Position numbers and translations under genes: made by a program. From Azolla caroliniana (lineage: Eukaryota > Plantae > Polypodiophyta), in assembly GCA_043228905.1 (NCBI GenBank), contig JBHGNT010001302.1, positions 1-10,050 of the forward strand: a stretch of 10,050 nt of DNA, written 5' to 3'. The notes below the pieces were generated by a model. That model had not been told where the DNA came from and ran no database searches. It saw nothing but the letters and a program-made list of their open reading frames with translations. Shown one piece after another: positions 1-10,050 of this stretch; positions within the stretch are counted from its first letter, which is position 1; every line of letters begins with the position of its first letter.

Positions 1-3000
1 ACACCATATATACTCATACAGGAATTTTCGCCATATTCCATCCGCTCCTTTATGATACAACATGTCATTAAATAAACAAAAATTCCGACTTCGTACTGCA
101 ATTCTTTTTCTTTCATCTGTCGACATGTGTTCGGCCGGAATTCCTGTTGATAGAAATATCGTCATTTCGGAAATCCATTCATCCTCTTTTTCCTCATTCA
201 CTTCATGTGCTTTTACTGCCTCCACCCGAAATAATTGAGTATCTGGAAAATCATCTTTAACCCCAACCGCTTCTTCTCCAGACTCAAGCCGACTGAGATA
301 GTCAGCAATCGCGTGCTGTGCTCCTGGTCGATGTATAATGTCGAATTCAAACTCTTGAAGCAATAATGTCCATCGGGCTAACTTGCCTGTCAATTCTTGT
401 TTGGAAACTAGATACAGTAAAGCCGAATGATCCACATGAAATGTAAATTTCTTACCCAAAAGGTAATGTCGAAATTTGTTCACACTATATATCATTCCCA
501 AAGCTTCTCTTTCGGTTGTTGAATAGTTTCTTTCGGCCGACGAAAGTTTCCTACTGGCATAGTATACCGGCCTATACCAGTTTGGTTCGGATAATTGCAT
601 TAAAGCACTGCCTATGGCAATGTCCGACGCATCGACGAAAACATGAAATGGTTTGTTCCAGTCCGGTGGTTGAACTACCGGAACCTTCGTCAGCATCTTC
701 TTGAGACATTCGTACGCATCTTGTTCTATACTTGTCCATATAAAAGGAACTTTGTGTACTGCTGTGTGTAACGGAATAGCAATGTCTGCTAGATATCTCA
801 TCATTCTACTGTGCCACCGAATTTGACCCAAAAATCTACTTAGAGCTTTAGCATTTGTTGGTGGTGTTGCCTCAATAATTGCTTTAACTTTGTCTGGGTC
901 CACTGCAATCCCTTCTTGACTGACAATATGCCCAAGTAATGTACCACTCATTACTCCGAATGCGCATTTGGCTGGATTTAAACTAAGACGCCCTTTTCGA
1001 CATTTTTCTAAACATAGCCGTAAATGCTCAAAATGATCAGCTTTCCGACTATATACTGCAAAATCATCTAAAAACACCTGCATGAAAGCTGGAATATATT
1101 CCCCGAATATTTCCTGTATTACCCGCTGAAATGTAGCTGGAGCTGTTTTTAAACCGAACATCATGACTACTGCCACAAAGACACCCCATTCTGTGACGAA
1201 AGCTGTCTTTTCCTGATCTTCCGGATTCATCCGTACTTGGTTGTACCCACTGAACCCATCCAAGAAACTATAAATTTCATGTCCCGCTACTGCATCTAAT
1301 ATCCCATCTGTGAATGGCAACGGAAACGCATCCGTAATTGTCGCTGCATTCAATTTTCTGTAATCCACACATACACGAATTTTCCCATTCTTTTTCGGGA
1401 CTACTACTATTGGACTCAGCCATGTTGATTTTTTGACGGGTCGAATAAATCCTACTTTTAAGAGTTTATCGATTTCTTCTTTTACTTTGATAGCATAATT
1501 CGGATTCAACCTGTACCTGCGTTGTTGTACTGGCTTTGCATCTTTATGCAAATTGATTTGATGTTGGCAAAAAGCGGGATCCAGACCTTTCATATCGTCA
1601 AAGGACCATGCAAAAACATCTTTATATTGTAATAGTAATGTTGTTAATGTCCGTTTGTCATTTACCGTCAAATCTCTAGCAATCAAGATTGTTTTTCTTT
1701 CAGCATCCTCTACTCCTGCCAAATCGATCTCCTCCAATGCTGAGGCTTGCACTCTCTGAGATACTTGCAATTCCTTATCTGTAGCTTCTTGTTGCATTCG
1801 TATTTCTTTCATTGTTTGCTCATCGATTGGCACTTCTTCGTGTGAGTCTACATATGGTGTTAATGCTTGCAAAATATCTACCTCAAATAGAGGGATGATT
1901 TTTTGATTATCATCAAAATACTGACTTTCTTCTTCCTCGTCCAATCCTTCCATCATATTAACTGCTTCTGCATATACAGGTAAACTCTGTTTGCTTGTTG
2001 TCACTTTGTTGTGCGTCGGAATCCTGACCTTATTTTTTCCTTTTCTAAATGTTAGCACATTTTGTTTCCAATTTTGTTTAATATTAGCTGTCTTTAACCA
2101 TGGTCTCCCCAATAACAAGGGGTATGCTCCCTGTGTTTCTAACTGCAAAATTACTGCCGAAATCTGAAAACTGTGTCCCCCGATTATTACATCCAGTTGT
2201 CGAAGCAACCCAATCGGTCGTACCGTACTTGTATCTGCCATTCGTAACCAAAACAGACATGCTTCCCATTCCGTGATTCCCAGTTTTTCACATGTAGTTT
2301 TGTTAATCACATTAACACCCGAGCCTCCATCTATAATCACATTTCCGATTTCTTGCCCGTAAAGTATTACCTTAATCGACGGATTCTGTTCATCCATGAT
2401 CGAAGGGTTATTACTTGGCTGATTGTAGTGTACTGCTATTTGTTCGGAACCTTTATATGCAATTAATGTTGCCACTTTTTCTGTAAACCTTGGTACTAAC
2501 TTAAGTAAGCCCGTAAGTGGTAATGACACTTGGCAATCCGCCAACAGTTTCCAAGTTTCTTCCTGTTCCTTATTCTCCAATGACTGTTGTACAACGATGT
2601 CCTGGTCAATGTTATTGTCTTGTAACATTCGATTCACATTACTTTGATTTGCTTCATCCACCCATTCCTTTGCCGCCTTCCGAACTTCTTCCTGAATTTC
2701 CCACTCTGATTGTTTGCTTTTGCTGCGTGTCGTTACTTGCTGAACTTCCGGTATTACCATATTAACTGCTGGACCCTTTCCTTTAACCGGACATTGATTA
2801 GCATAATGGCCTAGTTGTCGACAAATGTAACAAGTGGGCACAAATGTTGCACTGGTCTCTCCATGTGCAAATTGCCCGTTATTAAATTGCTGCTCTTCAT
2901 TACCATTCGGGTTTTGTTGGTATTGACGTGTAGCTTTTGGTTTGTAGAATCTCTTGTTTTTATACCTATTCGGCCTAAATTGTTCAGTATTATCATTTGG

Positions 3001-4380
3001 TTGTGCTATATTGTGTGGTATCCCGAACTCCTGATTTGGCGGAAAATTACTCTGTTGAAACATTTGATTATTTTGTGGAACGGTTTGAGTATTATGTTGA
3101 AAAGTCATATTACCCGGTTGAAATGCCGGATTTGGTTGAAATGTAGAATTCGGTTGCACATTCGGACAGTTCTGTTGAAACCCTTGAAATGGTGGATTAC
3201 CTTGTTGGAAACTTTGATTATTTTGTTGAAAATATTGATTCGGATTCTGTACGAATGGTGGGTTGGATTGAGCAAAACCTGGTTGAAATGCTTGAGTCAC
3301 TTGAGTGGGTTGCATATTTTGTTGTGAAAAGATCTGATTTGGCTGTAGAACCGGGTTCTGTTGTACATTTTGCTGATTTTGTGAAAAATTATTATTTTGA
3401 TAACCATTGAACAGATTAGTGTTATTTTGGTAACCACTGTCAGCAAAAATTTGTCGTACTGACGCCGTAGTCTTATTAAGCAGATTATATTCACATTGTT
3501 CTACGGCATGTAATTTTGAATGACATATTGTACAATGTGTTCTTAACGTACAGTCAATTGCCGAATGCCCCGTATTTAAACAAGTGGTGCATTGAACTGC
3601 TTGTCGAAATTGTAACTCCTCCATTGTAGGTAATGTACGGTGTAATGCCGACATGTCCATACTCTGAACATTGACCGGTGGTCGACCCATTTCTATTGCT
3701 TTATCAATGACTTGTTCGATAGTCTGATTTCGAAAATCGAACACTTTCAATGTCGTCCTTAATGGTTCTTTTACAGCTTCTAGAAAGACTTCTTTTAATT
3801 CCTTATCCGGAATCGGTCTTGAAATCTGAAGCTGTAAGTTCTGAAATCGTATCACAAACTGAGATACTGTTTCATTTTTTTCTTGATATAACGCATAAAA
3901 TTGCGCAATCAAATCCTTCTGCGGAATTTGTTGATGAAATAATTGTAAAAATTTACTAGTTAATACTTCAAAGGATGGAAATCCTTGAAGACCGTTCTGC
4001 GCAAACCAATTAGCGGAATATCCGTCTAATGATAAGACAAACTCAGCGATTTTTGACTTATCCTCGGCATCTGCCGACAATCGCTGAGCTCCATGGTTAA
4101 TCTCCCATGTCGTTAAGAAATCCCTAACATGTGCTTCCGCATCTGTTCCTTCCCGGAACTTAGAATAAGTATAAGGCATATCGTCCCAAATGTCGTAAAA
4201 CGATACCTCTTCCGTCTGTTTTTCGTCTGAAGGTAATTGATCGGATAAGTCAGGAAGTTTCGACCACTTTGTGCTTGATTCCGGTTGTTCTTGCGTAATG
4301 AACGCTTGCTGCACTACCTTCGTAACTGACCTTGTACGAGGGCGCTTACAACCGACCGGTGCCTCCTCTTCATACGACAT
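1..4380 (-). CDS. Gag-Pol polyprotein (gag, 3x CCHC, aspartic protease, RT, RNase H, partial integrase); 3'-partial at window edge
   Basis: Manual translation gives ATG at 4380 (MSYEEEAPVG...) and no stop codon down to position 1 (1460 codons). Absent from the ORF track because its stop lies outside the window. Confidence 0.95.
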   Translation of the reverse strand, partial: MSYEEEAPVGCKRPRTRSVTKVVQQAFITQEQPESSTKWSKLPDLSDQLPSDEKQTEEVSFYDIWDDMPYTYSKFREGTDAEAHVRDFLTTWEINHGAQRLSADAEDKSKIAEFVLSLDGYSANWFAQNGLQGFPSFEVLTSKFLQLFHQQIPQKDLIAQFYALYQEKNETVSQFVIRFQNLQLQISRPIPDKELKEVFLEAVKEPLRTTLKVFDFRNQTIEQVIDKAIEMGRPPVNVQSMDMSALHRTLPTMEELQFRQAVQCTTCLNTGHSAIDCTLRTHCTICHSKLHAVEQCEYNLLNKTTASVRQIFADSGYQNNTNLFNGYQNNNFSQNQQNVQQNPVLQPNQIFSQQNMQPTQVTQAFQPGFAQSNPPFVQNPNQYFQQNNQSFQQGNPPFQGFQQNCPNVQPNSTFQPNPAFQPGNMTFQHNTQTVPQNNQMFQQSNFPPNQEFGIPHNIAQPNDNTEQFRPNRYKNKRFYKPKATRQYQQNPNGNEEQQFNNGQFAHGETSATFVPTCYICRQLGHYANQCPVKGKGPAVNMVIPEVQQVTTRSKSKQSEWEIQEEVRKAAKEWVDEANQSNVNRMLQDNNIDQDIVVQQSLENKEQEETWKLLADCQVSLPLTGLLKLVPRFTEKVATLIAYKGSEQIAVHYNQPSNNPSIMDEQNPSIKVILYGQEIGNVIIDGGSGVNVINKTTCEKLGITEWEACLFWLRMADTSTVRPIGLLRQLDVIIGGHSFQISAVILQLETQGAYPLLLGRPWLKTANIKQNWKQNVLTFRKGKNKVRIPTHNKVTTSKQSLPVYAEAVNMMEGLDEEEESQYFDDNQKIIPLFEVDILQALTPYVDSHEEVPIDEQTMKEIRMQQEATDKELQVSQRVQASALEEIDLAGVEDAERKTILIARDLTVNDKRTLTTLLLQYKDVFAWSFDDMKGLDPAFCQHQINLHKDAKPVQQRRYRLNPNYAIKVKEEIDKLLKVGFIRPVKKSTWLSPIVVVPKKNGKIRVCVDYRKLNAATITDAFPLPFTDGILDAVAGHEIYSFLDGFSGYNQVRMNPEDQEKTAFVTEWGVFVAVVMMFGLKTAPATFQRVIQEIFGEYIPAFMQVFLDDFAVYSRKADHFEHLRLCLEKCRKGRLSLNPAKCAFGVMSGTLLGHIVSQEGIAVDPDKVKAIIEATPPTNAKALSRFLGQIRWHSRMMRYLADIAIPLHTAVHKVPFIWTSIEQDAYECLKKMLTKVPVVQPPDWNKPFHVFVDASDIAIGSALMQLSEPNWYRPVYYASRKLSSAERNYSTTEREALGMIYSVNKFRHYLLGKKFTFHVDHSALLYLVSKQELTGKLARWTLLLQEFEFDIIHRPGAQHAIADYLSRLESGEEAVGVKDDFPDTQLFRVEAVKAHEVNEEKEDEWISEMTIFLSTGIPAEHMSTDERKRIAVRSRNFCLFNDMLYHKGADGIWRKFLYEYIWC
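289..651 (-). other. RNase H domain (Ty3/gypsy type)
   Basis: FHVFVDASDIAIG; YYASRKLS; NYSTTEREALG; VDHSAL; RWTLLLQEFEF; HAIADYLSR. All four catalytic acidic residues are present. Confidence 0.95.
920..1452 (-). other. LTR-type reverse transcriptase domain (approximate limits)
   Basis: WLSPIVVVPKKNGKIRVCVDYRKLN; FLDGFSGYNQ; KTAFVTEWG; MMFGLKTAPATFQR; catalytic FLDD at 1074-1063; LNPAKC; LLGHIVS. Confidence 0.97.
2089..2376 (-). other. Retropepsin aspartic protease domain (approximate limits)
   Basis: VIIDGGSGVNVI (catalytic D at 2331-2329), LRMAD, and YPLLLGRPWLKTA. Confidence 0.9.
2791..2832 (-). other. Third CCHC zinc knuckle
   Basis: CYICRQLGHYANQC, C-x2-C-x4-H-x4-C. Confidence 0.9.
3493..3591 (-). 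other. Two tandem CCHC zinc knuckles (nucleocapsid)
   Basis: CTTCLNTGHSAIDC (3591-3550) and CTICHSKLHAVEQC (3534-3493), both C-x2-C-x4-H-x4-C. Confidence 0.9.
3700..4170 (-). other. Retrotransposon Gag capsid domain of element A (approximate limits)
   Basis: KFREGTDAEAHVRDF...SLDGYSANWF...SFEVLTSKFLQLF...LYQEKNETVSQFVIRFQ, containing the Q-x3-E-(S/T)-V-x2-(F/Y)-x2-RF major-homology-like motif. Confidence 0.8.
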
Positions 4381-4415
4381 CCATTCGAATTGTTCTCTGC
4401 TTAATTGCAGATGTA

Positions 4416-4428
4416 ACCGGGCGTGCCA
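4416..4428 (-). promoter_or_regulatory. Primer-binding site of element A, complementary to tRNA-Arg 3' end
   Basis: Minus strand TGGCACGCCCGGT. The plus strand ACCGGGCGTGCCA resembles the 3' end plus CCA of plant tRNA-Arg(UCU) as I recall it. Located between the LTR and the gag ATG. Confidence 0.75.
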
Positions 4429-4439
4429 AAATTCTTCTG

Positions 4440-4561
4440 TGTTAATCGGCTAATTACTAACTATTACCGATACAGAAGAGTGAACGTCGCTACTCAACGT
4501 TCTAACAAGGAATTGTGTTCCCACCTGTTCGGTAAAACTGACTGTCCGGGTCCGGGTAACA
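4440..4561 (-). repeat. 5' LTR of element A (~122 bp; inner end 4440 or 4438)
   Basis: Minus strand starts TGTTACCCGG exactly where B gag stops and ends GATTAACA(CA) just upstream of the PBS, with a 5-bp terminal inverted repeat TGTTA/TAACA. Partner LTR is not in the window. Predicted TSD is GTGTC (4562-4566, plus strand). Confidence 0.7.
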
Positions 4562-5085
4562 GTGTCCACCGACTTGACAAACAATAGTACTCAACTTGTT
4601 TCGAGCACCGTCCGGTCTAGCGTCGACAACCGTGCGAACCGTTTTTCGAACTCCTGGAGGAGCACCGACGTGTTCCTCCCCTTTCCGGGGCTTTCCACCC
4701 ATGCCATGAAGTCCCGCCTCGACAACCGAAGCGAGTCGTCAAACCCGTACTTCTCGAGGAGCTGCAGCTCGAACTCCTCCCAAGTCTGGCTTCTGGCCAA
4801 CACCTCGAGCACCTCCGCGTGGATGCCCGGCGTCACCACCCGAGGGAATCCGGACAGCCGCCTGTCCACCGGGATATCCCTCATGATCATTTCGGCCCGG
4901 TAAGCCTCCAAATAACTTGTGGCGTCTTTCCCTCCGAAGCGGCCTATAGAGCCGACGATCGATTCAATGGCTTTGTCGAGGGTACCCGTCCCCTCACGAG
5001 CACTCACAGCCGGTCGACGGCCACCGCCATTGCCTCTGCTAGCTCCGATCCCCTCATCTTTCGACTCCTTTGCCGCCCTGTTCAC
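4562..5085 (-). pseudogene. gag N-terminal portion of element B, disrupted
   Basis: IGRFGGKDATSYLEAYRAEM...TWEEFELQLLEKY...LLQEFEKRFARL is gag-like. After TGA at 4593-4591 (probably CGA>TGA) the frame continues VLLFVKSVD up to the element A junction. The track start at 5085 is a GTG inside the PBS, so the true start is uncertain. Confidence 0.8.
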
Positions 5086-5098
5086 GTCGGGTTCACCA
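5081..5098 (-). promoter_or_regulatory. Primer-binding site of element B, complementary to tRNA-Trp 3' end
   Basis: Minus strand TGGTGAACCCGACGTGAA. The plus strand TTCACGTCGGGTTCACCA matches the last 18 nt of plant cytosolic tRNA-Trp(CCA) as I recall it. It lies 4 nt from the LTR end CA. Confidence 0.85.
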
Positions 5099-5102
5099 AA
5101 GA

Positions 5103-5163
5103 TGTCGCGTTGTTACGCGCGTGCGTGTAGAAGGGGTGGGATCACAGGGGTCTTGAACCGAGG

Positions 5164-5224
<61 letters not shown>
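5103..5224 (-). repeat. 3' (U5) segment of element B 5' LTR
   Basis: Ends ...CGCGACA on the minus strand 4 nt before the PBS and runs into the (TC)n tract. Confidence 0.8.
5167..5224. repeat. (GA)29 microsatellite, 3' flank of LINE
   Basis: Perfect GA dinucleotide run read directly. Confidence 0.99.
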
Positions 5225-5228
<4 letters not shown>

Positions 5229-5237
5229 TAGATAGAT
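5225..5237 (-). repeat. LINE 3' tail (TCTA)3
   Basis: Minus strand reads ...GATAATATAA TCTA TCTA TCTA and then (TC)n. There is no poly(A). Confidence 0.8.
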
Positions 5238-5246
5238 TATATTATC

Positions 5247-5277
5247 GTCTTCGGAGGTCAAATATGACCTATGAGAC
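5247..5277 (-). other. 3' UTR stem-loop of LINE
   Basis: Minus strand GTCT-CAT-AGGTCA-TATT-TGACCT-CCGA-AGAC: 6-bp inner stem and 4-bp outer stem, about 10 nt before the tail. Confidence 0.6.
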
Positions 5278-5292
5278 CAAAAATATTACATT

Positions 5293-8200
5293 TCACGTGA
5301 TACGTGTGAAAGTGAGTAGTGACTCTCGATGTTCAAGAACTTTACCAATGAATGTTGCAATCGAGAGTGCACATTGTGGTTGTGAAAGGAATTCATGCAA
5401 AGATTGGGCTCGATCGAAGAGATGTGGAAAGCATGGTCGAATATGATCAAAGGCAGAGCATTGTATCAAAGTGTGATACTCAGACTCGCGAACTTGTTTA
5501 GGGCAAAGTGTGCATAGCCGACCACTCTCATCACTTGTACCCCAACGCCCTGTTTCACATCGCAATGCATGTGAGCTAAGTCGCATGGAAGCAATGGTTC
5601 GAATGGAAGATAACGGTATGGGCTCTAACATGTATGGATGTGTACGATTTCCCCGTTCCGCAAAGAATATGGTTTTGTAGTTAGGTGCAACATGTGTAGT
5701 ATAATGTGTGAAGCGTGAGCCTCCAAATTTGTCCCATGTCATGATACATTGGCGTTGCAAAAATGCCTCATTTACAGAGGAATCTAATGATGCATCACGA
5801 AGCAAGTGTCTTGCATCCCATCTACCAAACCATTTTTCTATATCTTGCATCCAACTGGAACACAAAATTTTGCTTTTATGCGTCTTTTGGATCTTTTTGC
5901 TTGCTTCCCATGCAATTCTAGGAAGTCGATGTGAGGGACTTTTTTGAACCTTAAGCATGTATTGAACAACCCTTTCCATGGCCATGATCTCAATGGGAAG
6001 CGATCCTGTCTCAAGGAGGAGGAGGGTGTAGGGCGTTTGTTTCTTAACTTGTAGAAACTTGGTAAGAAAATGCTTTTGGACATTTTCAAACTCTTTTCAC
6101 ATAGATTTAGGGATGCTACCGCCCCATACTTCCACCCCATAGAGAAGAACTGGTGTCACCAAAGTGTCGAAAAGATATTTCTTGAGGACCCAACACTTAA
6201 TATCTCCAAGATTGCATGTGTTCTCAAATGCATAGTATGCTCGCTTGCCCGCCTCTAAGCGGCGTGTAGCACATTCATTCCATCTATGATTTGAAGGAAC
6301 TTCAAGGCCAAGATATTTGAAGCTTTCCACACATTCAAGTGGCTCATTGTTGTACATAATGCATGGTTTATCTCTTTTTTGGCTCTTCACAAGCATAATC
6401 TTTGTTTTAGAGCTATTGACACTTAATTTAGTATGCATGCAAAAATTTTCCAATGCCTTCATAAGCTTTTGTGCATCTCCTAAAGTATTTGCAAAAAGCA
6501 CTACATCATCTGCATATAGCAAAAGCATAATCACAACATTCCCAATGGCAACTTCTGCAACACATTCTTCCTTTGCAAACTTGGTAACCATTTCTTCCAA
6601 TTCATCAATGCATAGACCAAATAGTGTTGGTGAGAGTGGGCATCCTTGCTTAACACCAATAGTGCTTTTGAAAAAATCTGAAAGTTTATCTCTCATGCGC
6701 ACACAACATATAACCTTCTCATAAATTCGGGAAATTGCAAGCATATATTCACTTGGCACCTCAAGTTCTTCCATTCGCCTCCAAAGATGCTCACGAGGTA
6801 CCATATCAAAAGCTTTCTTGAAGTCTACAAAGCAACAATATAAACCTTTACCTCTAAGGCGACTTTCCTCCATTAATACTCGAAGGGTGATAAGGTGATC
6901 AATGGTGCTATGGTGTTTCCGAAAGCCAGCTTGTCCATAAGCTCTCTTACCACTTTTTTCAGCCCATACGCTTATCTTTGATTCCATTATACATCCAAAT
7001 AGTTTTGCCATTAATGAGCCAACCATGATGGTTCGATAGTTGTTTACATTATTTATATCTCCACCTTTATGTAAAGGTTTGATCCAATTTGTAGTCCAAT
7101 CGTACGACATACCATGTTGCAATGCATCATTAAACATATCGCTTATCCATATATGTGCTTCATTTCCCGTCCATTTGAGCATTTCAGCCTTTATACATTG
7201 AAGATCGCTTGCCTTTCGAGAGGCCAATTTCTTAAGTCCTATGCATATATCTTCAATTGTAAAGAAGGGAGGCATATGTGAAAGAGAACCATAACACATC
7301 ATCTTTCCGGAAAGAGTTAACTCATATAAATTCTTACAATGCATAGACAAGTCATGAAGAGTTAAGTCACCATAACTCTCAACACGTTTTCCCTTTAGAT
7401 TTCCCCAAAATTTAGCACATGCATGTGCTTTCTCTTGCGTTTGGATAAATTGTTGAGTAACTTCCCATATTCTTCTCTTTCTTTGAATAAGCCTTTTATA
7501 CTCATGCAAATGCTTTTGGTAATTCTCTTTATCCTTAACTACATCCAAAACCATAAGGCACTTTCGAGCTTCATGACATTCTTTATCAAACCATTTTTTC
7601 CTAAGTTTCTTGGTGCATTTCCAAGATGTGCGGTTGGTCGAAAAACATTTGTTTGTACATGAGAGAATGACTTTCTTGAAAGCTTCCCATTTGCATTCTA
7701 GTGTGGCACCATGTTGTATCTTTGTCATTTGTAACATATCCTCAACCATCTTGGAGTACATGGGTGCTTGCTTAAGGTTCATGCTCAAGTGCGGTTGTTT
7801 ATTATCTTCAATAGCCTTCTCACAATCAAACCTATGCATACATTTGAGATCAATACATAAAGGCCTATGATCGGATTCCGGTGTCCATTCACCAAGTGAG
7901 AATTTATGTATACGATCCAAAATACCTTCGGAAAGTAGCACATAATCAATCACACTATTTCCGTTGTGTTTTCTACATGTAAAACCATTAGTGTTGGGCC
8001 ATAAGGAAATACCATTTGCAATAAGCAATCCGGTACTATTGCACATTTGTAGGAGTAACTTCCCAAATTGGTCTGGATCTTTTTCATCGCTAGAAGAGCG
8101 GTTATACATTTGCATATCCTCTTGCATCCTTGAGATATGTGGCATGAAAGATTCTTGTGAATCAAGTTGGAAACTTCTTGTACGAGCATTCATGTCACCA

Positions 8201-8667
8201 AAGACAATAACTTCCCCTTTGGATTTGAAATAAGAAATATCATCTTCTAGATTGGCAAACGGTTGATCTTTATCCAAACAAGCATAAAAGCTAGAATCTT
8301 GATGAGGAATGTAACATCCAACTACAAAAGTGGGCAAATAATTAGGTGCTTCTATTTTGAGCCATATGTAGCATTTATTTTCATCATTTTTTATGATTGA
8401 CACATATTTCTCTATTTCCTTCTTAATCAAACATGCCACCCCTCCTTGTCCTCTTCTTTGTCTTGGATTTTTCTTCCATATCAAAGAGTGTACATTATAG
8501 TTTCCTAAACCTTGAATCCTTTGAGTATCATGCTCCCATGTTTCAACAAGAAGTGTGATATCCGAGTCATCGGTGAACTCCTCTATGCCAAATCCTGCAT
8601 TCCATGGGTATCCATTGCAATTCCAAAAGTATAGTCGTAAAAGTCGTGGGTTAGTCTCATAGATCAC
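5293..8667 (-). pseudogene. LINE ORF2 (AP endonuclease, reverse transcriptase, C-terminal zinc finger), 1124 codons with one internal nonsense codon
   Basis: APE motifs WNCNG, LVETW, GGVA, YIP, GDMNAR, IDYV, SDH (7875-7867). RT motifs YRTI, QAGFR, FVDFKKAFD, GVKQGCPLSP, YADD (6516-6505), FKYLG. C-terminal CTLC..H....C (5514-5458). Track ORFs 6097..8667 and 5293..5985 share one frame, joined across TGA at 6099-6097 (probably TGG>TGA). Confidence 0.95.
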
Positions 8668-8673
8668 GTGTCC

Positions 8674-9228
8674 CTATTTGCCTACATTGCCATCTTTAGG
8701 CACATCCTTAACCTTGTTTTTCAATCTTTCTTCATATGCTTTACGACGAGCATTTTGTTGTGAGATAGTGCGATCTTCACTCACAAAGCATTGTGTACCT
8801 TTGAGGTATACCCAACTATTTTCGAGTATGATCCGCCGCTTTGTATCATCTGTCATTGTGCATACAATAGGCCTTTCTCCGGAGCGAGTAACACCATGTT
8901 TCCCAACTCGGTGTGCCCCATATACATTCACATCTGACATCCCATAATGCATGCTAAAAAATTCACCAATGGCCTTTCCAAGGGATGCGGGTGTTTCAAT
9001 ACTCTCTTCTTTAATCCCACGGACAACAATGTTCTTTGATCGTCGTTCACGTTCTTTCAATTCTCGAACATCTATGTTTTCTATATTCTTCTCTTGATAC
9101 ATCACATGCATATTAGATGAGTTTGATAGCATATCCCCACCACATACATCGGCCCATGACTTCGTTGTACATACATTTTTCATCTCACTTACATCCCGCC
9201 TCATCCACTTACATCCCGCTTCATGCAT
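8674..9228 (-). CDS. LINE ORF1 (coiled-coil remnant, RRM, CTD; Transposase_22/L1 ORF1p-like), probably N-terminally truncated
   Basis: RERRSKNIVVRGIKE, AHRVG, RPIVC and VSEDRT...RR motifs characteristic of L1/CR1/L2/RTE-X-type ORF1p. Lies directly upstream of ORF2. Confidence 0.85.
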   Translation of the reverse strand: MHEAGCKWMRRDVSEMKNVCTTKSWADVCGGDMLSNSSNMHVMYQEKNIENIDVRELKERERRSKNIVVRGIKEESIETPASLGKAIGEFFSMHYGMSDVNVYGAHRVGKHGVTRSGERPIVCTMTDDTKRRIILENSWVYLKGTQCFVSEDRTISQQNARRKAYEERLKNKVKDVPKDGNVGK

Positions 9229-9230
9229 AT

Positions 9231-9232
<2 letters not shown>

Positions 9233-9262
<30 letters not shown>
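9233..9262. repeat. (GA)15 microsatellite, 5' flank of LINE
   Basis: Perfect GA run read directly. Confidence 0.99.
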
Positions 9263-9267
<5 letters not shown>

Positions 9268-9464
9268 AGATACGCGAAGCGAGAAGGAGAGATATAGAAC
9301 GTAACACTTGATTTCAATAACAAGAGATTACAACGACAAGAGAATACAAGGGGGTTACAAGAGAATACGACTCTTACGGTTACAACCGACGAGGCGGCGA
9401 TGGACCCGACACAAGGATCCTACTCACACACATAGACAGCGAGTCGACTCCTAGAAAAAACAAA

Positions 9465-9478
9465 GGGGGGGGGGGGGG
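9465..9478. repeat. G14 homopolymer inside LTR B
   Basis: Read directly. Confidence 0.9.
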
Positions 9479-9643
9479 AGAGCCTCTGTTGGAAGCGCAC
9501 GGGTTGTCCACAAATTAGAGGCAGCGAGCTCCCGACCCACAAAGACCGACGGCCGGAGGAGAAGAGAGAGCTCGACACTCAGATTTGTAGCAACACTTCG
9601 TCCTCCCTAGCGCGCGATACCTGCTCCTTCCTCCTCTCCCTCC

Positions 9644-9650
9644 TTAAATA
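9644..9650 (-). promoter_or_regulatory. Putative TATA box of element B LTR
   Basis: Minus strand CTATTTAAGG followed by a purine-rich run, in a typical LTR U3 position. Confidence 0.55.
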
Positions 9651-9873
9651 GTTCCCCAAAAGGGGGTGCCCCCCCTTTTCCTTAGCCAAACTGCTTTATT
9701 CCCTGTCCCTGTCGATAGAGATACGCACAAAATCCCCTAATAAATGTGCACTACCTAGTATTTACACCAGTCGCCCTAATTACGAATATATCAATCCTCG
9801 CATCCACCCGTGTAAGAGCAAGTTCATGCGCCTTTTTCTTCGATTCCGCCTATGGCCGGTTTTCTTCACGACA

Positions 9874-10050
9874 CCGGTCCGCCCACAACGTGTAAGGTAT
9901 GGCGCCATGGTCAATTCTTGACCTGCCCTTCACACGCTCGCACCAACGCCTTCACGATTGGGCCATACCCTCGTTCTACCTTCCCGTTCGCCTTTGGGTT
10001 GTATGCCGTAGTGAGGGAGAGGTTGACCCCTAACCGGTTGAACAGTTCTT
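9874..10050 (-). pseudogene. Degraded Ty3/gypsy integrase core fragment (element 'C')
   Basis: ELFNRLGVNLSLTTAYNPKANGKVERGYGPIVKALVRACEGQVKN*P, then after a frameshift PYTLWADR. Contains the rve motif with the catalytic E (NGKVER). Stop at 9913-9911 and cut by LTR B at 9873. Confidence 0.88.

Follow-up and report, generated by a model that had tools for sequence, protein, structure and literature searches.

How can a retrotransposon make its endonuclease and reverse transcriptase from a reading frame that lacks a start codon? This question is raised by a high-copy LINE in the fern Azolla caroliniana, located in what we call the window, that is, the whole 10,050-nucleotide stretch of DNA analysed here. 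The first open reading frame of the LINE (ORF1) ends in a UAG, and the second (ORF2) follows in the same frame. To our knowledge, the synthesis of ORF2p and its action on its own RNA are understood for only a few LINEs, all of which employ reinitiation. Our comparison of the sequences points to a different route: probably, this family produces its endonuclease/reverse transcriptase as an ORF1–ORF2 fusion by readthrough of the UAG, stimulated by a helix that would join the bases following the stop to the 3' UTR.

The minus strand of the window, from position 9228 to approximately 5237, is one LINE (Table 1). It has the components of an APE-type LINE: an APE endonuclease followed by a reverse transcriptase in ORF2 and, upstream, an ORF1 whose structure model matches the LINE-1 ORF1p chaperone. 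Its simple-repeat 3' end, its 5' truncation, and its absence of long terminal repeats fit the same class. A Pfam search with ORF1 gave no hit. The ORF1 model (pLDDT 73.6) was compared using Foldseek, and the nine best matches, with E values of 0.001 or lower, were all human LINE-1 ORF1p (best E 1.8e-05, covering the RRM and C-terminal domain). Among solved structures, the best relatives of ORF2 are LINE-1 ORF2p. The nearest named proteins come from ferns, and more distant ones from a liverwort. The reverse transcriptase and C-terminal motifs resemble those of the RTEX (RTE-X) clade, to which the element may belong. The TATC/TC tail is a short tandem-repeat 3' end other than poly(A), which is an RTEX trait, albeit one common to other clades.

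The window copy is dead, being 5'-truncated and interrupted by a premature stop in ORF2. Above the TAG, the frame spans 217 codons from stop to stop, or 184 counted from the ATG at 9228. The truncation is deduced from an Adiantum nelumboides ORF1 relative of 332 aa, which possesses about 150 N-terminal residues that the window ORF1 does not. Below the TAG, ORF2 stays in the ORF1 frame and runs 858 codons before it meets a premature TGA at 6099–6097, then a further 267 codons to its true stop at 5295–5293. Over its full length, ORF2 is 68–70% identical to the intact relatives P0006 and P0007.

Table 1. Features of the LINE and its junction (window positions).
Feature	Positions	Strand	Basis or remark
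ORF1, C-terminal 184 codons: RRM and C-terminal domain of LINE-1 ORF1p type	8677..9228	-	structure model
ORF2: APE-type endonuclease, reverse transcriptase, C-terminal Cys/His motif	5293..8673	-	PF03372, PF14529, PF00078
ORF1 stop TAG in AAA-TAG-GGA, candidate readthrough codon	8674..8676	-	no variant at or above 2% in four runs
8-nt spacer between stop and conserved helix core	8666..8673	-	core from +9 in window, L092, L093
GTG, third codon past stop, ATG in a subfamily; candidate restart codon if ORF2 is reinitiated	8665..8667	-	
5' arm of predicted helix, +7 to +23 past stop, conserved core 8665–8654	8651..8667	-	
Hairpin of the earlier note, unsupported as a signal	8596..8619	-	-6.1 kcal/mol; region z 0.01
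First in-frame ORF2 ATG, codon 161 past stop	8191..8193	-	in GDMN motif
3' arm of predicted helix, in the 3' UTR, 3370 nt from 5' arm	5264..5280	-	inverted repeat
Predicted 3'-terminal stem-loop, sharing bases with helix 3' arm	5247..5278	-	
3' tail: few TATC units, then (TC)n microsatellite	5163..5236	-	
(TC)n microsatellite at truncated 5' end	9232..9262	-	

An earlier note on this DNA placed the ORF1 stop and ORF2 in one frame, and we confirm that arrangement: the minus strand reads GGC AAA TAG GGA CAC GTG ATC TAT GAG. The first in-frame ATG is also where that note put it, at 8193, 158 codons past the GTG. An ORF2 protein begun at this ATG would lack the first half of the endonuclease, and the motifs encoded upstream of it have catalytic roles in APE enzymes. 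The stop hexamer, UAGGGA, belongs to the type III readthrough pattern (UAGGGV, UAGGUA, or UAGGAU). It is the hexamer given for MoMLV and CIRV in the accessible text of PMC13517186.

Variation among copies was assessed in public contigs at least 80% alike, aligned on the junction in four runs from three organisms (X1, X4, X14, and X15, with 130, 145, 68, and 61 contigs, respectively). Eight variant rows reach 2%, all within 8663–8692 and none at 8669–8683, the interval containing the TAG; only the center of the scanned stretch is informative because edge variants seen in another run set went unlisted. The earlier note had proposed checking the TAG across copies, and the stop proves invariant at this level: neither the TAG nor the next five bases vary in any of the four runs, and the last ORF1 codons (8684–8692) contain five variable positions. 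One protein with a sense residue at the stop position, P0026, was set aside as a short decayed fragment.

The third codon past the stop exists in two forms. By depth at 8667, which is summed over contigs and is no measure of copy number, ATG makes up 17.5% in X1, 31% in X4, 1.3% in X14, and 1.0% in X15 (a run that is probably DNA), and, in two further organisms, 60% in X12 and 13% in X13. GTG is the majority in four of five organisms and, in organism E, constitutes 99% of depth. The mirror CpG change, at 8668, amounts to 3.9% in X1 and 1.5% in X4 and never exceeds 3.9%. Because it is several times rarer than the change to ATG, CpG decay is ruled out as the sole origin of the ATG variant; the ATG identifies a subfamily that carries a usable AUG and has spread. 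The earlier claim that ORF2 has no AUG is correct for the window copy and, in four of five organisms, for the greater part of the depth; a real ATG variant nevertheless accounts for 1% to 60% of depth depending on the run. An ATG in place of the GTG was also an outcome the earlier note had listed against its own reading, and in part it is what we find, in the subfamily and at its highest in X12.

The phase comparison among relatives that the earlier note suggested comes out in its favor: phase and a leaky-type stop are kept down to approximately 25% protein identity, and the layout recurs in distant relatives. Specifically, two scans by conserved ORF2 motifs (reverse transcriptase or endonuclease) supplied 160 loci, 80 each. 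The first 80 lie in records titled bacteria or archaea, where we take them to be contigs of a host that ended up in such bins. In the second scan, which reached 11 of the collection's 64 parts, 491 loci matched and the best 80 were used. Seventy-nine of the 160 loci held the ORF2 start with its flank. Together with the window they make 80 elements; the window, where the feature was discovered, is included in these sets. The in-frame layout, defined by at least 100 open codons above the stop, is present in 41 of the 80, window included; all pairs of the 41 are less than 80% identical, and grouping at 50% gives 27 groups. Their stops are 38 TAG, two TGA-CGG, and one TAA, with TAG-G in 33. Strict type I, II, or III hexamers occur in 14 of the 41 (type III in 11), and another 22 have UAG-G in other forms. 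In a stricter in-frame set of 38, the stops of ORF2 itself, available for the 23 elements with a 3' end, are mixed: 10 TAA, seven TGA, and six TAG. An ATG precedes the first endonuclease motif in nine of these 38 elements versus 30 of the 42 others, which include decayed and truncated copies. Only 11 of the 38 have CTG, GTG, TTG, or ACG within the first eight codons.

The close relatives are instructive at the level of single codons. On a quick tree of 64 of the 80 rows, the window groups with L092, L093, and L094 (SH-aLRT 98), whose junctions read TAG-CAA-GCA-ACG, TGA-CGG-GAC-GAG, and TAG-CAA-TCA-AAT, respectively. Where the window has GTG, L092 has ACG, L094 has AAT, L093 and L100 have GAG, and L098 has GCG. 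According to the classes laid out in the available portion of PMC3159437, the TGA-CGG of L093 is a type II context and the TAG-CAA-TCA of L094 is type I. The junctions of the window and L092–L094 thus indicate that the stop context moves among the three leaky classes (PMC3159437, PMC13517186, as far as their accessible text describes them) while no start codon is kept.

Several lineages depart from the common arrangement. One supported branch (98) of the quick tree unites eight elements that have an early ATG and lack an in-frame ORF1. L018, L126, L137, L141, L143, L145, L150, and L158, and also L026, L022, and L029, show an apparent switch to an ATG-started ORF2, with pairing between the junction and the 3' UTR mostly absent. 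Judged by their sequences, the ATG-switched lineages (L018, L126, L137, and the like) appear to be natural controls for the mechanism. Seven elements (L056, L058, L059, L064, L066, L033, and L062) have an in-frame TAG-G with 125–300 extra codons between stop and endonuclease, and some of them have ORF1 frames of 650–740 codons. L035 (326-4786), the sister of in-frame L037 on the tree, is a single open frame of 1487 codons with the endonuclease from residue 280, possibly a natural ORF1–ORF2 fusion without a stop. No intact natural fusion, which would demonstrate that such a protein is functional, was present among the five ORF1 relatives of 323–2000 aa found, which is weak evidence. Long proteins with ORF1-like parts ahead of the endonuclease, two of them Riccia gene models, look like gene predictions that skip the junction and were left aside. 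In the P0008 cluster, six members have the same length, 1074 aa, one member comes from a Pteridium transcript set, and the representative begins about 65 residues inside the endonuclease. The cluster points to a further expressed family in ferns whose ORF2 begins without a start codon. Finally, scans of viral contigs gave no match with three queries, and a fourth returned 11 loci with reverse transcriptase only, which were left out of all counts.

What might render the stop leaky? The earlier note had pointed to a hairpin downstream of the stop. That hairpin can be drawn but is weak, and the 150 nt past the stop, which the note proposed folding, are no more stably folded than shuffled sequences (z 0.01; 96 of 200 shuffles did as well). 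On both grounds, a local hairpin was rejected as the stimulator. The earlier readthrough reading thus gains comparative support from the phase, the kept leaky-type stop, and the absence of a conserved start codon, and loses its local stimulatory structure.

The best partner of the 30 nt past the stop, along the whole element, is the inverted repeat in the 3' UTR. The predicted helix comprises 17 contiguous pairs, three of them G-U, with a duplex energy of -26.7 kcal/mol, which was reached by 3 of 5000 shuffles in one test and 0 of 5000 in another. Near 8943, 30 nt of ORF1 form an equally strong predicted duplex with the 3' UTR (-28.6 versus -27.8 kcal/mol), and for that reason energy alone cannot single out the post-stop site. 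Within the family, a variant at 8663, at 38% to more than 99% of depth, converts a U-G pair to C-G, and with the ATG variant the energy hardly changes (-25.8 versus -26.1).

The predicted helix was also compared across families. In the window, L092, and L093, every position of a 12-bp core (+9 to +20) is paired. Two of its columns differ among the three, with matching changes in both arms, and these compensatory changes come at the cost of amino acid changes. The arms of these three close families share 75–92% of core sequence and are therefore not independent. L012, L102, and L019 have 16–17 bp helices whose sequences are unrelated, and pairing is kept despite complete sequence turnover in L012, L102, L019, L151, and L165. 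A complete 3' end is available for 46 loci: 25 in-frame (window included), 16 not, and five decayed copies of one TAG-GGGG family that were set apart (L109, L110, L119, L121, and L153; z of -2.0 or below in four of five). In the 25 in-frame elements, pairing with the element's own tail peaks in the first 24 nt past the stop (mean z -2.47) and is approximately zero from +20 on. The z value falls below -2 in 17 of 25, or in 13 of 20 when one element per 50% group is taken. Permuting the tails reached the observed own-tail energy 0 times in 100000 for the 25 in-frame elements versus 19983 times in 100000 for the 16 others; the own tail ranks first among the 46 tails in only four of the 25. Eight of the 25 have no clear pairing, including L013, L037, L117, L132, L144, L147, and L098, which lies near the window on the tree and whose 3' end looks atypical.

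The conserved, covarying helix is predicted approximately 8 nt downstream of the stop, the spacing of type III stimulators; viral readthrough structures are described as having 7–12 nt spacers in the portion of PMC3159437 available. The 3' arm shares bases with a predicted 3'-terminal stem-loop, so the two structures would exclude each other. L092 and L093 are predicted to form the same terminal hairpin from altered pairs. In stringent LINEs, recognition usually relies on such stem-loops, by the account accessible in PMC3747384.

We therefore propose a sequence of events in which most ribosomes would halt at the UAG and release ORF1p. In a full-length RNA, the 3' UTR would fold back to form a 12–17 bp helix 6–8 nt past the stop, positioned at the ribosome mRNA entry channel, where it would favor a near-cognate tRNA over release factor. 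On its way past the UAG, a readthrough ribosome would unwind the helix. The 3' UTR, once released, could refold into the terminal stem-loop, which probably serves as the recognition site for reverse transcription. The notion is that ORF2p would be made at a low ratio to ORF1p, that the enzyme would arise only from RNAs with an intact 3' end, and that its synthesis would be coupled to priming in cis. The in-frame layout, the UAG-GGA context, the missing AUG, and the conserved complementarity with compensatory changes are all present in the sequences themselves. We judge it an even call whether the same switch operates across an extensive and ancient set of LINEs whose hosts are land plants and apparently also animals. 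If it does, reverse transcriptase would be produced by programmed readthrough under the control of a 3.4-kb bridge, the bridge would alternate with the stem-loop, and the enzyme would come only from full-length RNA, its making exposing the priming site; this switch would be a basis for cis-preference and would have arisen independently of tombusviruses.

The ATG subfamily invites another explanation, which is that ORF2 is made as a separate protein by termination and reinitiation at the GUG or AUG six bases past the stop, or at a nearby codon as in LINE-1, with the helix serving to hold the ribosome. The near-cognate ACG of L092 fits this proposal, as do the gene callers that start P0006, P0049, and P0050 at the third codon (ATG and GTG being indistinguishable there). 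Moreover, in the accessible accounts, LINE-1 is reported to accept any sense codon in place of the ORF2 ATG (PMC1965478) and SART1 employs structure downstream of its stop-restart site (PMC5972666). Reinitiation keeps weight because the subfamily exists and LINE-1, per that account, needs no AUG. An AUG near the ORF1 stop is present in the subfamily and absent from the window copy and from 29 of 38 in-frame elements. We nonetheless consider reinitiation unlikely. Reinitiation requires neither phase 0 nor a leaky stop, yet half of the elements are in phase and nearly all of those stops are TAG. Most relatives have something other than a start codon at the third position, and start-like codons are scarce among the first eight. 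The GUG sits at the helix edge in a weak context (CAC-GUG-A), and organism E nearly always has GTG there. Finally, ATG-bearing relatives with a shifted or separate ORF1 mostly have no pairing (0 of 9 at the ATG and 2 of 9 past the upstream stop, in a hand-picked set).

Alternatively, readthrough could proceed from the local UAG-G alone, and the helix could hide the 3' stem-loop from reverse transcriptase until translation of the RNA is over, join the RNA ends for packaging, or repress ORF2. About one-third of the in-frame elements keep TAG-G without pairing, the type I context of L094 requires no structure by the account in the available text of PMC13517186, and the overlap of the 3' arm with the predicted terminal stem-loop would suit a different role for the helix. 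The same text describes type III contexts as weak without downstream structure, however, and the 5' arm is confined to the first 24 nt past the stop and nowhere else nearby, at the spacing of a readthrough stimulator; this explanation strikes us as distinctly improbable. Least credible by far is that the layout and complementarity play no part in translation and simply survive from the past, for example from an ancient inverted copy of the 3' end: the window copy is dead and the arms in the three close families are related in sequence, but the compensatory changes in the core, the survival of pairing through full sequence turnover in five families, the own-tail permutations, and the TAG bias at the junction against mixed ORF2 stops largely refute it.

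Readthrough stimulated by the long-range helix, as proposed here, has a close counterpart in the tombusvirus CIRV p36/p95 junction (PMC3234231, in the text accessible to us). Both have UAG-GGA with the polymerase downstream of the stop. In CIRV, the PRTE-DRTE pairing spans about 3.5 kb to a 3'-terminal element with an alternative, replication-related fold; the predicted LINE counterpart spans 3370 nt. In a dual-luciferase setting, according to that paper, the CIRV pairing could not be demonstrated. The two differ in that the proximal CIRV partner is part of a large local stem-loop, whereas the 150 nt past the stop of the window LINE give no significant local structure. Instead, its predicted helix is a long contiguous duplex beginning 6–8 nt past the stop, in a retrotransposon. 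By analogy, the LINE would work like the CIRV signal without being a member of that family.

Parallels extend to gammaretrovirus gag-pol and alphavirus readthrough, going by the available text of PMC3159437 and PMC13517186: the LINE shares UAGGGA with MoMLV, a structure 8 nt past the stop that is predicted in the LINE, and the order of a nucleic-acid-binding protein upstream and a reverse transcriptase downstream. The viral stimulators are local, either a pseudoknot or a stem with a 100–270 nt loop, whereas in the window LINE the "loop" is all of ORF2. Within non-LTR elements, Paramecium Group 3 likewise has one frame, and readthrough was suggested from consensus sequences; it is a separate ciliate clade, and no signal, structure, or test is given in the portion of the paper available (PMC5405496).

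LINE ORF2 translation is described as reinitiation or coupling in the accessible parts of PMC2881922 and PMC5972666. Like the window LINE, LINE-1 and SART1 have a bicistronic RNA in which ORF2 depends on ORF1 translation, but they restart at an AUG, past a 63-nt spacer or at an overlapping stop-start (PMC2881922, PMC5972666, PMC1965478, same proviso). In the window LINE, one stop joins the frames and most relatives have no AUG; its ORF1p, as modeled, would share the LINE-1 fold. RTEX elements resemble it in length (about 5 kb), two ORFs, and a short-repeat tail. The RTEX accounts, in their available portions, are silent on the ORF1–ORF2 junction (PMC10294476, PMC3747384, PMC11203168), and one of them lists short tandem-repeat tails for green algal RTEX (PMC3747384). 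In the accessible literature searched, we found no readthrough test or stop-to-3' UTR pairing for any LINE, and Paramecium Group 3 was the only in-frame ORF1–ORF2 precedent. The feature in the window is real and deeply conserved, and would represent a known viral mechanism in a class of elements for which the literature searched held no description of it.

If the proposal is correct, long-range control of readthrough extends from plant RNA viruses to cellular mobile elements, the active enzyme bears ORF1 at its N-terminus, and many annotations of an "ORF2 without a start codon" are N-terminally wrong. The family offers a testable alternative for ORF2p synthesis with only one stop and one helix, in which compensatory mutants can be read from natural variants. 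A reporter holding only 150 nt downstream of the stop would be without the 3' UTR partner of the helix. Gene insertion tools built on LINEs could also profit from a readthrough signal that responds to an intact 3' end.

The surroundings of the LINE suggest how it arrived. The (TC)n tracts at its two ends together likely mark the insertion site. A 20-nt tandem duplication at 9186–9225 lies at the truncated 5' end. The LINE is flanked on both sides by (TC)n; likewise, at 8856 in run X4, a loose end continues into AG repeats, a possible sign that (TC)n/(GA)n is a preferred target. Above the LINE, at 9230–9690 (minus strand), a purine tract and an LTR-like stretch are found; the stretch resumes below the LINE at 5080–5170 and ends at a primer-binding-site-like motif near 5100, presumably of the tRNA-Trp type, followed by a gag-like frame at 5112–4591. 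The LINE thus appears to have landed in an LTR. Farther upstream of the LINE, at 9870–10050 (minus strand), is an integrase-like fragment (TTAYNPKANGKVER). Finally, a Ty3/gypsy-type gag-pol occupies positions 1–4449 (minus strand) as a single open frame, at least 1483 codons long, that encodes gag, zinc knuckles, reverse transcriptase, and RNase H, with a long Gln/Asn-rich low-complexity stretch between the zinc knuckles, and this element seems to interrupt the gag-like frame near 4545.
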